Shown: one piece after another, positions 10,048 through 14,733 of the stretch | Layout of the letters: the number at the start of each line of letters is the position of its first letter | How positions within the stretch are numbered: the first letter of the stretch is position 1 | DNA from: Armatimonadota bacterium | GTDB taxonomy: Bacteria; Armatimonadota; DTGP01; JAKQQT01 | Assembly (NCBI GenBank): GCA_036504855.1 | Contig: DASXUL010000075.1 | Span: 12,655 to 76,654 of the forward strand | Length of the DNA stretch: 64,000 nucleotides | Direction of reading: 5' to 3' | Program-made: the position numbers and the translations under genes | The notes under the pieces: model-generated | What the model was told of the DNA's origin: nothing | Seen by the model: the letters and a program-made list of their open reading frames with translations, nothing else | Database searches by the model: none

Positions 10048-11217
10048 CTACCCGCCCATCTGGTCGGTCCACCAAGCTCTGAAGCGTTCCCACGTGGTCA
10101 TCGGCGGCGGCGCGGGCGGCATCTCCCGCAGACGTCGCTCGGCGTCTTCCTTCACTTGCGCCACGACATCCTTCGGCGCGTGTTCCAACGCGCCTTCCAG
10201 TCCGTTCGCCACGGCGCGGCCGGTGTCTGGCCCCGCCGAAGCGGCCTGATCGAAGGGCACGGCCACCCGGGCGCGCAGAGACTCCATGCCCTTGGGCGCC
10301 GCGTAATCGGCCTGCGCATCGACCGCCCGGATTTCGCCCAGATAGTACGCGGGCGCCTTCGGGTTCAGCGTTTCGGCGCGGCGGAACTCTCGCGCGGCCT
10401 CCTGGTGATCGCCCGCGGCGGCGAAGGCGGCCCCGAACCGGGCGAACTCCTCGGCGCGGCGCCGGCGATCCGCCGCCGCGTTGGGTCGCAAGGCCGTCTG
10501 CAACGCCAGGGCCGCCAGAAGGGCCAGTATGAGAACGTTCTTGAAGCTCAATGGTCGCGCGTCTCTTTCCGCATTGGCCGGCCGCGGGGATTCCGTCCAC
10601 TTCGAGCGCTTCGCGAGCGTCCGAACCCGCGCTCGGTCGCTTCGATGGCCAAACATATAGTAGCCCGGCGCGGGCTCCACCCGCCCGTCGCGCCAGGCGA
10701 AGAAGTCGCGCGTGCAGGCGATCGGGTCCACCACCAGCCCGACCATGGCCGGGTCCGCGAAGAAGTTGCGGTGGATGAACTGGTCCTGCTCCGAAAAGAA
10801 CACGCCCAGGCCCGGGTGGGTGTGATACCAGCCCACGATTTGCAGGTTCGGGCAGTGTTCCTCGCGATCCGCGTTCAGGGTCTGCCACGTCTCGTGCGTG
10901 AACGTAAGCTCGGTGCGCGTTTCGGCGGCGGCGCGGGCCGGCAGGGTTCTCTCAATGAGCACGTACTCGCCGTCGCCCGATGCGTAGACGCCCCCCAGAA
11001 GAACGCCGCCCACCTCCGCCTTCGGCGAAGCGGCTGCGTGGAACTCAACCGATGCCAGTGCTTCGTACTGGATGTAGACGGGGATCGCCACCATCGCCGG
11101 GGTTCCCACCGCGGTCACATGGGTCCGGCGTTCCTCCGAGGGCGACGGACGGCGCTCCGCCTCGCGGCGGCCCCGTTCGTTTCCCAATCGGATGTCTATG
11201 TCATCGTGGCCGGGCAC
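10048..11217 (-). CDS. JAB/MPN (JAMM) metalloprotease domain protein with a TM segment and a C-terminal TPR-like helical region (JAB-1)
   Basis: JAMM motif E...GWYHTHPGLGVFFSEQD. Hydrophobic helix 'VLILALLAALALQTAL'. Helical C-tail. Confidence 0.7.
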   Translation of the reverse strand: MPGHDDIDIRLGNERGRREAERRPSPSEERRTHVTAVGTPAMVAIPVYIQYEALASVEFHAAASPKAEVGGVLLGGVYASGDGEYVLIERTLPARAAAETRTELTFTHETWQTLNADREEHCPNLQIVGWYHTHPGLGVFFSEQDQFIHRNFFADPAMVGLVVDPIACTRDFFAWRDGRVEPAPGYYMFGHRSDRARVRTLAKRSKWTESPRPANAERDARPLSFKNVLILALLAALALQTALRPNAAADRRRRAEEFARFGAAFAAAGDHQEAAREFRRAETLNPKAPAYYLGEIRAVDAQADYAAPKGMESLRARVAVPFDQAASAGPDTGRAVANGLEGALEHAPKDVVAQVKEDAERRLREMPPAPPPMTTWERFRAWWTDQMGG

Positions 11218-11230
11218 GGCGCTCCCTCCG

Positions 11231-12235
11231 CTATGGCTTCGCGGCCAGGGTCTTTGCCAGGTCTTCAGATGGAAGCAAGAGCCTTCCGCCCACAGTGAGG
11301 GCGTTCGGATCCTGAATGTGGTTCAGCACGCGGATGGCTTCCGCGGCGCGACCGTCGCCGTACTGCGCGCTGGCGATTTGCCAGAGGCTGTCGCCGGGCC
11401 GAACGGTGTAAGCGCGGCTCCAGCTCGATGTCGCCTTCGGCGCGGGCGCCGGGGCGATTGCGGCCGGCGGCGGCTCCTCGCGCTTCCCGGCGGGCGGCGC
11501 GGCGGGCGCCGGAGCCGCCGCCGGAACCGTGACGGTTCGCACTACCACTCGTTCGACGATTCGTTCTCGTGGGGGTCGAAAAAAGGCCATGTAAGCCACC
11601 CCCAGGGCCACGCCGACCACAACCCCGCCAGCCACCAGGGCGGCGCGGGCCATCTGGTAGGCCGCCGGAATCGGCTGGCCGGGTGGAATCGGAGCAAGGC
11701 GCGTCGGCGCGGGTTCCGCGGGCGGGCGGTCTGCCCGCTCCACCTTGCCGTCCTCCCAACGGAAGAACCCCCGCGTCTTTCCGATGGGGTCCACCACATA
11801 GGCGATCTGCCACGGTAGGTTGAAGAAGTTGTGCTGGATGAAGAGGTCCCACCGCGAGAGGAAGATCCCGAATCCGGGGTGCGTGTGGTACCAGCCCACG
11901 ATCTTCAGGCCGGGGTACTGCTCGTCCTTCACGCGATGGATGTCATCCCAGGTTGCGTGGGTGAACTTAACGCTGGTGCTCACGGCCTCGGTGTGTTTGG
12001 CCTCGATAGCGGCGGTAACGCGCACCAGGGGGCGAGGCCCGTCCGTGCGCAGCTCGCCCAACAGCACGCCGCCCAGTTCCCGGGTGGTGTCGGTCTGCGC
12101 GAACTGCTCGATGGAGGCGGCGACGGCCGGATCCATCCAGATTTCCGGACGATCGCCGGAGGGTTCAACGGGAGCCAGCGTGATGTCCAGATCCACGTCT
12201 TCCTCATCCCGATGGCTGGGTTCCGGCGTTGTCAT
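11231..12235 (-). CDS. JAB/MPN (JAMM) metalloprotease + TM + C-terminal LysM peptidoglycan-binding domain (JAB-2)
   Basis: The true start is the ATG at 12235 (MTTPEPSH), which has a GGAAGGAA RBS. The longer ORF-track version overlaps the E1 gene. JAMM motif 'GWYHTHPGFGIFLSRWD'. LysM 'YTVRPGDSLWQIASAQYGDGRAAEAIRVLNHI...LLLP'. Confidence 0.7.
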   Translation of the reverse strand: MTTPEPSHRDEEDVDLDITLAPVEPSGDRPEIWMDPAVAASIEQFAQTDTTRELGGVLLGELRTDGPRPLVRVTAAIEAKHTEAVSTSVKFTHATWDDIHRVKDEQYPGLKIVGWYHTHPGFGIFLSRWDLFIQHNFFNLPWQIAYVVDPIGKTRGFFRWEDGKVERADRPPAEPAPTRLAPIPPGQPIPAAYQMARAALVAGGVVVGVALGVAYMAFFRPPRERIVERVVVRTVTVPAAAPAPAAPPAGKREEPPPAAIAPAPAPKATSSWSRAYTVRPGDSLWQIASAQYGDGRAAEAIRVLNHIQDPNALTVGGRLLLPSEDLAKTLAAKP

Positions 12236-12273
12236 GGTCTGTTCCTTCCGACCGGCCGCACTTGCGGCGCGAT

Positions 12274-13512: not shown

Positions 13513-13785
13513 TCAGGCTCCGGCGGTGATTTCGGGCAGCAGGCGGAGCACATCGTCGTCCTTCACGCCAGCGTCCGCCAGAGTCTGCTCGTCGGTAAGC
13601 TGCATGCCGGAGGCTTTGTGCTGAAACTTGTAGCTCAGCAACTGGCCTCCGGGGTCGGTTGAGGGAAGTTGCATCATCTCAACGAGGCGGGCGATGATGC
13701 GGCGCACGGGCGCGTCGTCCGGCAGGGTCGCCTGTTGCTCCTTGTTGCCGGTGGCATCCAAGATGGTTACGTTCACTTTGCCCAT
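13513..13785 (-). CDS. ubiquitin-like beta-grasp protein (Ubl), C-terminus ...LRLLPEITAGA
   Basis: 90 aa. The pattern KVNVTIL...TLADAGVKDDDVLRLL...AGA parallels the ubiquitin/ThiS/MoaD fold. It is translationally coupled to E1. Confidence 0.6.
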   Translation of the reverse strand: MGKVNVTILDATGNKEQQATLPDDAPVRRIIARLVEMMQLPSTDPGGQLLSYKFQHKASGMQLTDEQTLADAGVKDDDVLRLLPEITAGA

Positions 13786-13846
13786 AGGTTGTCTCTCTGG
13801 TCTCCTATACGGTCATGGTCGGCAGCGGGTTACGCCGGCGCCGTGG

Positions 13847-14733
13847 TCACTTCAACTCAATGTCGAGGTCGTCTTCGTTCGGCTTTGCCGCCGGTGGGCG
13901 CAGATGGACCTTCACGTCCGGCTCGCGGAACACGCGTTTTGGTCGCCGCCGGCCCTTGGCAATGCGGATCAGGCTGTCTGCCGCAACGCCGAGGATGAAG
14001 CCGAGGCCCAGCGCCAGGACGGGGAACCGTTTCTGGCGCGGTCGGGCGGCGGGGGGTAGAGCCGGCGCAGCGGTGGAATCGCCCGGCAATTCCGCGTTGT
14101 CCAGGTCCGCCGAAACGGCGACCCCGGCCTGCCGGAGGATTGGGAAGGCCGCGCTGATGGGAATCGCGAACCCCACGCCATTTGAGTCCGCCTCGATCAT
14201 CGTGTTGATGCCCACCACCTGGGCCTGATCGTTCAGCAGCGGGCCGCCGGAGTTTCCAGGGTTCAGGGCCGCATCGGTCTGGATGTAACGGCGTCCGTTC
14301 ACAAGGCGGTCCCGGGACGAGACGATCCCCCGGGTGACCGTGTGGTCGAGCCCGCGCGGGGCGCCGATGGCGACAACTTCATCGCCGTTCTTCAGGTCCT
14401 TCACGCTGCCCACCGGAACGGTGGGCAGGTTCACGGCGGAGAGACGCAGTACCGCGAGGTCCAGGTCGGAATCCTCCTGCACGATTCCGGCAGGGACCTC
14501 GCGACCGTTCTTCAGAACGACCACGATGGAGCCGCCGGAGTCTACTACATGGGCGTTGGTGAGCGCGAATCCGCGCGGGTCCAGGATAACGCCGGAGCCC
14601 AGAGTCTCACCGCCGGGCACGCGCACATGGATGGTCACAACGGAATCGTCGGCGCGGGCCACAACGTCGCGCACGGCGGCCCCGGCGGGCACGGCCAGCG
14701 CCAGGGCCAGGAGGGCGGAAAGGCGTGCTCTCA
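13847..14733 (-). CDS. trypsin-like (S1/chymotrypsin-fold) serine protease with signal-peptide-like N-terminus; start uncertain (probably a TTG overlapping the E2-2 stop)
   Basis: Catalytic-triad context TNAHVV ... DLAVL ... GNSGGPL. N-terminal 'RARLSALLALALAVPAGAA'. The ORF-track version (to 15397) overlaps the E2-2 gene in another frame and is rejected. Confidence 0.55.

Follow-up and report, generated by a model that had tools for sequence, protein, structure and literature searches.

A short acidic motif recurs at the ends of nearly all the enzymes encoded by a predicted ubiquitin-like conjugation operon in an Armatimonadota metagenome-assembled genome (MAG). The operon lies on the minus strand of a 64,000-nucleotide stretch of contig DASXUL010000075.1, referred to here as the window, and runs from position 5937 to ~17100 as a single unit of 12 proteins. 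These are a ubiquitin-like protein (Ubl), an activating enzyme (E1), two conjugating enzymes (E2a and E2b), two JAB proteins (JAB-1 and JAB-2), a trypsin/HtrA-like protease, RING-D and three further Prok-RING_1 proteins, and an FHA protein. The consensus of the motif is [DE]-D-ψ-[DE]-I-[DET]-ψ, where ψ is L, I, V or F. It is a genuine, deeply conserved, pathway-wide short linear motif found in several bacterial phyla. On balance it probably serves as a Ubl-interacting linear motif, carried on flexible cytoplasmic tails of the proteins that handle the Ubl.

The core expression D[LIV][DES][LIV].[LF] was run on all six frames of the window (~128,000 positions). It matches six times, always within this operon, in the coding frame and 1-14 residues from a terminus: in E1 (residues 4-9), JAB-2 (15-20), JAB-1 (6-11), the protease (290-295 of 295), E2a (169-174 of 175) and E2b (159-164 of 168). 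Non-coding frames and the other genes of the window contain no match. Composition-preserving shuffles of the 12 operon proteins gave 0.14 matches on average and 3 at most, with six reached in 0 of 20,000 trials. For six matches, the probability of every one lying 16 residues or less from an end is ~2.5e-6. The expression was picked after the data had been seen; the independent test is conservation in orthologs, and the motif passes it.

A previous, sequence-only reading of this DNA had described a recurrent acidic motif at the termini of E1, both JAB proteins, the S1 protease and a zinc-finger protein, ZnF-D (RING-D), and every string it quoted from these proteins is present. The recurrence is real and stronger than was stated, with all six matches terminal, but the list was incomplete. 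The C-termini of both E2s, a first copy in the E2a tail, the FHA N-terminus and a second E1 copy (PISVTLD) had been missed. The RING-D string PPIDLTLEP is a weak match, and it lies at 16726-16749, outside the interval 11190-13880 to which the motif had been assigned. The Ubl tail DDDVLRLL, which had also been counted, is not an instance, as it aligns with the C-terminal strand and tail of ubiquitin (Ubl residues 59-88 with ubiquitin 46-75).

The termini that bear the motif can be trusted because the gene models match NCBI annotation and have plausible ribosome-binding sites. Six models derived from ribosome-binding sites are identical to proteins in the series HEY3267026-36, so their termini agree with those at NCBI. 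For instance, JAB-2 begins with an ATG at 12235 behind GGAAGGA (HEY3267032), and JAB-1 with a GTG behind GGAGGGA (HEY3267031). On a matching contig whose protein falls in the same 90% cluster, the JGI call for JAB-1 is 348 residues long, compared with 389 at NCBI. Judged by length, the shorter start would remove the N-terminal motif; the ribosome-binding site and ortholog conservation favor the long form. As this example illustrates, automatic start calls can conceal terminal motifs.

Within the motif, hydrophobic residues at positions 0, +2 and +4 alternate with acidic residues at -1, +1 and +3, the pattern of an amphipathic β-strand. It is N-terminal in E1, JAB and FHA proteins, C-terminal in E2 and the protease, and internal, after the RING, in some candidate E3s, frequently in tandem copies 10-25 residues apart. 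In the AlphaFold2 (AF2) model of the window E1, residues 1-30 form coil with a predicted local distance difference test (pLDDT) score of 55-61, against 88-98 for the body. A clostridial fusion of E2, transmembrane (TM) domain and FHA was modeled with a mean pLDDT of 68. Its membrane domain scores ~90, and its segment 122-219, which holds both motif copies, scores below 50, as do the C-terminal part of the E2, the tail and half of the FHA domain. Neither monomer shows the motif docked on its own chain, which for the low-confidence fusion is a weak negative. Because the linkers are variable and unconserved and the AF2 confidence is low, the motif behaves as a linear motif in a disordered tail. 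All copies appear to be cytoplasmic, judging by the positive-inside rule (the protease has KGRRRPKR after its TM helix) and by their closeness to cytoplasmic JAB and RING domains. In the protease, the motif tail follows the second TM helix and this stop-transfer stretch.

Conservation was assessed in 80 related loci, whose genomes include those of Armatimonadota, many Clostridia, Planctomycetota and Aminicenantes; all open reading frames (ORFs) of at least 50 residues in them were classified by phmmer against the window proteins. A second scan added 80 more loci, mostly of a sister family described below. The candidate stretches examined in the two scans held at least 547 and at least 543 loci with E1 relatives. 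A scoring matrix built from protease tails alone, with a cut-off of 10.5 bits, gave 28 matches per 10,000 residues in the protease, 21 in E2, 7 in E1, 6 in JAB, 1 in RING and 0 in FHA and Ubl, with no match in 79 Ubl orthologs. The 9,983 other ORFs of the same loci gave 0.12, so that motif density in E1, E2, JAB and the protease is 50-230 times higher. As the sequence-only reading had proposed to check, the motif is kept across phyla while the flanking linkers vary in length and sequence, and it is found at the same termini in low-GC Clostridia.

The protease has the strictest form. All 52 tails examined read [DE]-x-[ST]-D-[FIV]-[DE]-I-[DET]-[IL]-x(1-2)-COOH, with D(-1) and I(+2) invariant, and in 60 of 62 the motif stops 1-2 residues short of the C-terminus. 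The residue that follows is L, H, K, E, W or Q, K being the final residue of some tails (IELK, IDLK). Of 22 standalone E2a orthologs, 21 have one copy or more beyond the UBC fold and 12 have two or more, 10-24 residues apart; in 18 of 21 a single residue follows the last copy. The site of the first copy reads LYQPDLDIDLV or LYQPDIEISLL. E2b orthologs are degenerate (ending LDIGIGAQ or TDVTIGAK) or have no motif.

Among the best 120 E1 homologs, which are 52-70% identical, half carry [DE]-ψ-x-[IV]-x-ψ in the first 30 residues, compared with 1% when shuffled. Isoleucine occupies +2 in 53 of 58 matches, with D or E at -2 and -1, and the spacer to the adenylation domain is unconserved and 3-54 residues long. 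The second E1 copy appears in orthologs as a degenerate ψ-D-ψ-D-ψ-EEDRY abutting the domain (LDVDLEEDRY, LDIDLEEDRY), and short E1 forms retain this core-proximal copy alone. JAB-1 orthologs start MNEPEELDISLGG, MNEPQELDIQLGG or MDDFEIELL. Where JAB paralogs occur, one begins MDDFEIEL and the other MAKKK, and orthologs of the JAB-2 paralog have weaker copies. The FHA protein keeps its N-terminal copy in the closest relatives as MSDDRVEVKLDD and MSDERIEINLND (DRVEVKL and ERIEINL). Its second element corresponds to NDFEITAEEL of clostridial E2-TM-FHA fusions and to DKIRITYDEL and EKIIITREDL of divergent loci. In a subset of RING proteins the motif comes right after the RING, with strong copies (DDLDIELYPP, DDDLGIELHPP, PIIEIDFDD) in loci L001, L002, L003, L024, L030, L038/L060, L073 and L078. 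The two closest relatives of the window operon retain the copies of E1, JAB-1, the protease, E2a (two to three) and the FHA N-terminus; the E2b copy is not conserved in them and RING-D is absent.

A minimal form of the system is found in the isolate Anoxynatronum sibiricum Z-7981 (locus L060), where a Ubl-E1-E2-JAB-RING operon sits between unrelated housekeeping genes. Here E1 has PIEIDL, E2 has DDFAITL and a terminal DDVDIKLW, JAB has LDFDIELG and RING has PIIEIDFDD; the Ubl is the sole protein without the motif. In the set of 80 loci the gene for the FHA membrane protein is missing from 21, even at E-values up to 10, and several of these have ~10 kb of flank on both sides. Other records titled as cultured strains that carry the system are Massiliimalia massiliensis, Clostridium weizhouense and a Lachnospiraceae strain. 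Contig CAVGWF010000065.1 (L031), titled 'Escherichia coli isolate H07611-L1_cleanbin_000006', holds a typical clostridial system nearly identical to that of a Clostridiales MAG (L032) and is probably mis-binned or mislabeled.

The sequence-only reading had suggested that the shared motif docks by β-strand addition on a common scaffold, naming Ubl, E2 and FHA as possible receptors, or that it is a recognition or processing site. Docking by strand addition is the best-supported of these options. An FHA scaffold is unlikely because 21 of the 80 loci have no FHA-membrane gene and the minimal operon retains the motif, and E2 is not favored because it is net acidic and bears the motif itself. The evidence points to the Ubl as the partner. 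Three things together favor it as the receptor: the exclusion of other receptor candidates from the operon, covariation between motif and Ubl, and precedent.

The covariation concerns charge. In a first comparison of 79 loci, six of them without the motif, eight columns of the Ubl alignment separate the two groups perfectly. All lie within residues 3-44, spanning the β1-β2 hairpin, helix α1 and the following loop, and they are mostly charge changes: K3 is lost, E7 and E/D20 are gained and K/R33 is lost. With K or R at Ubl residue 33, 80 of 83 loci have the acidic motif; with V or L there, 3 of 52 do, one of these within the JAB fold. K3 and R33 of the Ubl, together with a net positive charge over its N-terminal half, track the presence of the acidic motif.

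The sister family (L063, L064, L068, L074, L079, L080 and most of L081-L160) comes from Planctomycetota, Aminicenantes and many metagenomes. It consists of Ubl, E1, JAB, FHA, RING and E2, the E2s having zinc-ribbon extensions. Its motif is altered in charge, reading D-V-L-[RKH]-I-[ST] in E1, [DE]-[KP]-I-R-I-T in FHA and L-D-V-R-x-L in JAB. The E1 tails keep ψ-x-I, but position +1 is R, K or H in 12 of 25, compared with D or E in 25 of 30 in the first family. Ubl residues 1-44 carry a net charge of +1.46 in the first family, against -0.90 in the sister family (effect size -1.96). The shift is small (absolute effect size at most 0.7) for Ubl residues 45-89 and for the E1, E2 and JAB cores, all of which are net acidic in both families. 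Such covariation is suggestive, being the pattern expected if the charged face of the motif contacts the N-terminal half of the Ubl. A further pattern, F versus I/L at motif position 0 against A versus V/Q at Ubl residue 32, is also present. It was dropped as phylogenetically confounded, since every F/W lineage inspected in the 80 loci belongs to Bacillota.

On contact, the peptide would pair as a β-strand with the edge of the Ubl β-sheet, at the β1-β2 hairpin and helix α1. The side chains ψ(0), I(+2) and ψ(+4) would be buried, and the acidic face would meet the conserved basic residues K3, K15, R29 and K/R33 of the N-terminal half of the Ubl. In E1, the motif would catch the Ubl and present its tail to the adenylation site, in the manner of UBA5 with its UFM1-interacting sequence (UIS). 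In E2, tandem copies would hold a non-covalent Ubl, and in JAB proteins the motif would recruit Ubl conjugates. On the RING E3s, the FHA protein and the protease, it may gather Ubl-charged or Ubl-marked partners at the membrane.

The closest precedent is UBA5, which binds UFM1 by a sequence outside its adenylation domain, an anchoring that is needed for activation (PMC5428781). In this sequence Trp341, Ile343 and Leu345 (ψ-x-I-x-L) fill hydrophobic pockets formed by UFM1 Leu21, Val23, Val32 and Phe35, and the affinity for UFM1 is ~8 µM (PMC5428781). The UIS, also called an LC3-interacting region (LIR) or UFM1-interacting motif (UFIM), is likewise a short stretch that a small E1 carries on a flexible tail at one end, clear of the adenylation domain, and its core spacing is that of ψ(0)-x-I(+2)-x-L(+4), with some E1 orthologs here reading DDLGIEL. 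The key isoleucine is found in all 52 protease tails and in 53 of 58 E1 matches, and the E1 copies (residues 3-9 and 20-26) lie in low-confidence coil ahead of the RYSR start of the adenylation domain. UBA5 is also the top solved structural neighbor of the window E1 model (6h78/6h77, E 6e-21). In contrast, the UIS is C-terminal, whereas the E1 motif is N-terminal and usually duplicated. No aromatic residue is conserved in the window lineage, and the motif is not confined to E1 but recurs in E2, JAB, RING, protease and FHA proteins. Moreover, the Ubl is ubiquitin/YukD-like rather than UFM1-like, and binding here is predicted.

SUMO-interacting motifs (SIMs) also add a strand to their Ubl, SUMO. 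Such motifs can occur on several enzymes of one pathway, examples being the C-terminal LIR of ATG4B and the SIMs of PIAS, RNF4 and SENPs, and they are often present in tandem. The SIM core consensus is [VIL]-x-[VIL]-[VIL] or [VIL]-[VIL]-x-[VIL]. LIR motifs form an intermolecular β-sheet with strand β2 of Atg8, and Atg7 uses hydrophobic and acidic residues of its C-terminal tail to bind Atg8 (PMC7564214). The consensus of the LIR, or Atg8-interacting motif (AIM), is W/F/Y-x-x-L/I/V (PMC7564214, PMC10183829). The motif described here resembles both classes in its short hydrophobic core, its acidic flank (D/E at -4 and invariant D at -1 in protease tails, D/E at -2 and -1 in E1) and its placement in disordered regions. 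Its core is nevertheless ψ-acid-I-acid-ψ, strictly alternating (D-L-D-I-T-L), and, unlike that of a SIM, has no adjacent hydrophobic pair in the consensus. Nor does it fit the aromatic-x-x-[LIV] of a LIR, as the window copies have no aromatic and the F at position 0 in Bacillota is paired with D, E or T at +3. The host is also bacterial, and the motif strictly terminal, 1-2 residues from the C-terminus in the protease and E2. By analogy, it is predicted to act like UFIM, SIM and LIR motifs while standing outside the SIM and LIR consensus classes.

Several points weigh against the Ubl as receptor. The covariation rests on one deep split between families and may reflect a single historical event, and the whole system differs between the two families. 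Surface exposure of the Ubl residues was inferred from the alternation pattern of the β-grasp fold rather than from coordinates. In sequence the Ubl most resembles ubiquitin, whose known binders mostly place helices on the Ile44 patch rather than adding a strand. Why an extracytoplasmic protease would need a Ubl-binding cytoplasmic tail is not evident. Finally, no natural fusion of the motif to the Ubl is present among the best 150 of 1,213 Ubl-family clusters (50% identity, E at most 1e-3, from a profile search of 1.84 billion representatives).

An unlikely alternative to Ubl binding is that the motif docks on one enzyme that acts as a hub, either the C-terminal zinc-ribbon/β-rich domain of E1, the back face of E2, or a RING. 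The minimal system, which retains the motif, includes E1, E2, JAB and RING, E1-E2 and E2-E3 contacts are required in any case, and the β-rich domain of E1, with its four invariant cysteines, has no assigned role. Yet every candidate hub carries the motif itself, and in the AF2 models of single chains (E1 and the E2-TM-FHA fusion) the motif is not docked on the rest of the chain. The cores of E1, E2 and JAB, with net charges of -4 to -8 in both families, hardly shift where the motif changes charge, and the strongest family-specific change is in the N-terminal half of the Ubl.

It is improbable that the FHA membrane protein is the scaffold, with Asp(-1) mimicking phosphothreonine so that D-x-x-I resembles pThr-x-x-I and the tails are collected at the FHA domain. 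The invariant D and I of the 52 protease tails do have the pT+3 spacing, the FHA domain is nearest to those of the GarA/OdhI/FhaB type, and GarA binds some partners without phosphorylation. Clostridia, moreover, fuse E2 to the FHA membrane protein. However, the residue three positions before the invariant Ile is an invariant Asp, not the Thr of an FHA phosphopeptide ligand, and the 21 loci without an FHA-membrane gene include complete motif-retaining loci as well as the five-gene system of A. sibiricum. In an alignment to GarA, GR becomes GS and SRRH becomes SPEQ in the window protein. The GarA arginines at these sites contact the phosphate, and the window FHA domain probably does not read phosphothreonine. 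These positions look still more degenerate in a consensus reading of the clostridial fusions. The fusion model shows no docking of the motif on its FHA part, which is itself of low confidence, and the FHA protein has motif copies of its own. Neither the translations nor domain scans of the operon proteins revealed a kinase or phosphatase gene.

In the clostridial fusions, from L007, L009, L012 and ~50 other loci (proteins P0241-P0360), an E2 is joined to a helical multi-pass membrane domain and a C-terminal FHA domain in 550-660 residues. They represent the adjacent E2a and FHA genes of the window as a single protein, with a disordered linker that holds two motif copies.

That the motifs pair with each other, as amphipathic strands zipped into a shared sheet, perhaps bridged by divalent cations and with no dedicated receptor, seems decidedly improbable. 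Strict hydrophobic/acidic alternation, frequent tandem copies and the presence of the motif on every component but the Ubl are in keeping with this idea. Like-charged faces would nonetheless repel each other, and self-pairing predicts neither the Ubl-specific charge covariation nor an invariant Asp, as opposed to Glu, at position -1. In the AF2 models the two copies remain unpaired, both in E1 and in the E2 tail.

The other option raised by the sequence-only reading, a recognition, processing or degradation signal at which the enzymes are Ubl-modified or cleaved, is very improbable. Terminal location is typical of degrons and some tails end in K, but no lysine is conserved in or beside the motif. 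The protease domain is inferred to be extracytoplasmic, across the membrane from the cytoplasmic motifs, and the maturation site of the Ubl (ITAG|x, ITAG|A in the window) is unlike the motif, so a processing site finds no support. A PDZ-type C-terminal ligand was considered and rejected, as the same motif is N-terminal in E1, JAB and FHA and internal in RING, and domain scans found no PDZ domain in the operon. Lastly, compositional chance in an acidic, Leu-rich, high-GC proteome, which had been named as the refuting outcome, has a negligible probability: the window has a GC content of 62-70% and abundant D, L and E, but the six matches far exceed the shuffles, the matrix finds one other match in the window, and the same termini are conserved in low-GC Clostridia.

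That other match is PDIDLDID, at 48554-48571 on the plus strand, inside a 1196-residue ORF (47228-50818) that looks like DNA polymerase III alpha. It was rejected as a further copy, being an unrelated chance resemblance inside a folded domain of this DnaE-like protein, where it presumably represents the catalytic aspartate motif of the polymerase.

By its predicted domains, the operon belongs to the prokaryotic E1-E2-RING-JAB-Ubl systems. Such operons were reportedly predicted by comparative genomics by Burroughs, Iyer and Aravind in 2011, in work said to be the origin of the Pfam families Prok-RING_1 and Prok-JAB. All of the expected domains are found in the window. E1 has a ThiF-family adenylation domain (PF00899, 5.2e-54), and its AF2 model (mean pLDDT 90) has UBA5, UBA3, ThiF and MoeB as top matches, with the C-terminal β-rich domain confidently modeled. 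E2a and E2b both match UQ_con (PF00179) and contain the HPN motif and catalytic Cys in the stretches HPNFGSFICIGDHW and HPNILPPRRNGGVCIGRW. The Prok-RING_1 zinc finger (PF14446) occurs in four proteins, the candidate E3s, and JAB/MPN isopeptidase families (PF01398 and PF14464) in two, alongside a β-grasp Ubl with a C-terminal Gly. The FHA-membrane protein, the HtrA-like protease and the LysM/TPR ectodomains make this one a membrane-associated version. JAB-2 combines JAB, a TM helix and LysM, JAB-1 combines JAB, a TM helix and a TPR-like region, and the FHA protein is a multi-pass membrane protein with its FHA domain at the C-terminus (5937-6260). Full-text literature searches, which did not reach the 2011 paper, found no description of the motif.

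Other bacterial systems share parts of this logic. The Bil and Bub antiphage systems and Cap2/Cap3 of type II cyclic-oligonucleotide-based antiphage signaling systems (CBASS) also employ E1, E2, Ubl and JAB components, and PADLOC weakly matched the E1 to E1-E2 (Cap2) and BilD models and the JAB to Cap3-like ones. The PADLOC and NCBIfam matches of the operon proteins are generic, with no specific family, and the operon is not a recognized defense system there; no defense-island context was seen around it. Unlike in those systems, E1 and E2 are separate and RING E3s are present. The E2s also have a canonical HPN...C with a cysteine available for a thioester, whereas Bub uses oxyester intermediates (PMC11601596).

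The Ubl itself (90 residues) matches the YukD family (PF08817, 1.8e-12), with weak matches to ubiquitin. YukD, or EsaB, of type VIIb secretion is a non-covalent assembly factor that contacts the FHA domains and a predicted β-hairpin of YukB (PMC12637312). In contrast to YukD, the Ubl has a conserved C-terminal ...PEITAG and shares its operon with E1, E2 and JAB, and it is therefore presumably conjugated. No type VII secretion genes are found near the operon. The window Ubl has a β-grasp fold and ends ...LRLLPEITAG plus A, its stop codon being followed by the E1 start in the same frame. In orthologs the Ubl ends ...LRLQPEITAG, in which ...PEITAG is invariant, followed by 0 to more than 300 extra residues, and the C-terminal glycine is presumably exposed by processing at ITAG|x. 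In several Clostridia (L015, L019, L026, L028, L031, L032, L037, L069 and L075 were examined) the extension is either a zinc ribbon with TM helices or a large secreted-looking domain. Such an extended form would be a membrane-anchored precursor that needs cleavage after the Gly. The Ubl family also includes tandem two- and three-Ubl proteins and a 480-residue Ubl-JAB-linker-Ubl fusion (P0441, P0372, P0374, P0428, P0455).

One of the RING proteins, RING-B (8591-9376), joins an MshEN-like N-terminal domain to Prok-RING_1 and a C-terminal membrane domain of the CD225/interferon-induced-transmembrane type. The combination looks unusual, and an MshEN-RING protein is retained in the closest relatives of the window operon. 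Adjoining the operon on the opposite strand (17182-21674) is an apparent chemotaxis cluster, judged by eye from the translations, in the order CheY-like receiver, CheX/CheC-like protein, CheA-like histidine kinase (869 residues) and CheW-like protein. At 38001-42000 the GC content falls to 0.54-0.55, against 0.62-0.70 elsewhere, and this region may be foreign or otherwise special DNA. The motif copies are listed in Table 1.

Table 1. Copies of the motif encoded by the operon, and the proposed receptor (window positions).
Feature	Position	Strand	Gene and context
FHA protein, second element NRIVITADDL, residues 32-41, related to the motif but family-specific	6957..6986	-	
FHA protein, N-terminal copy NRVEISF, residues 4-10	7050..7070	-	gene 5937-7079
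E2a, extreme C-terminal copy DDLEIQLF, then stop	7099..7122	-	gene 7096-7623, UQ_con
E2a, first copy in the tail, PEVAITL, immediately past the UBC fold	7144..7164	-	E2a tail
JAB-1, N-terminal copy DDIDIRL, residues 5-11	11185..11205	-	gene 10048-11217; string MPGHDDIDIRLG
JAB-2, N-terminal copy DVDLDITL, residues 13-20	12176..12199	-	gene 11231-12235; string EEDVDLDITLAP
E1, second, core-proximal copy PISVTLD, residues 20-26	13435..13455	-	just ahead of EDRYSRLRLIPWW, start of the adenylation domain (RYSR)
E1, N-terminal copy DDLDITL, residues 3-9	13486..13506	-	gene 12274-13512, protein start MADDLDITLG
Ubl, proposed receptor, no motif copy	13513..13785	-	YukD/ubiquitin-like β-grasp
Protease, extreme C-terminal copy DDLDIELK, then stop	13850..13873	-	gene 13847-14734, end NEDDLDIELK
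E2b, C-terminal SDISISL (SDISISLGDSR, then stop), weak and doubtful	14746..14766	-	gene 14731-15237, UQ_con
RING-D, weak copy PPIDLTLE, ~25 residues past the RING	16726..16749	-	gene 15442 to ~17031, Prok-RING_1

In eukaryotes, SIM, LIR/AIM and UFIM motifs are central to the specificity of the SUMO, Atg8 and UFM1 pathways. We know of no Ubl-interacting linear motif for any prokaryotic ubiquitin-like conjugation system. If the motif does bind the Ubl, a docking peptide common to E1, E2, E3 and deconjugase would be an ancient or repeatedly invented solution. A broader picture can be sketched, tentatively and as a rather doubtful whole, in which bacteria already have the eukaryotic device of one Ubl-binding motif on every enzyme of a Ubl pathway, used here to form a multivalent, membrane-attached ubiquitination hub. 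Cytoplasmic Ubl marks would then be coupled to events beyond the membrane through the tails of the HtrA-like protease, the LysM/TPR-JAB proteins and the RING-TM proteins, the charge-swapped sister families would form a natural orthogonal pair, and the motif could be a forerunner rather than a convergent form of UFIM, SIM and LIR. The motif is an experimental handle on a widespread, membrane-associated and uncharacterized bacterial ubiquitination system, and a simple sequence signature for finding more of its components and clients. Its two charge-swapped families of motif and Ubl constitute a ready-made specificity experiment.

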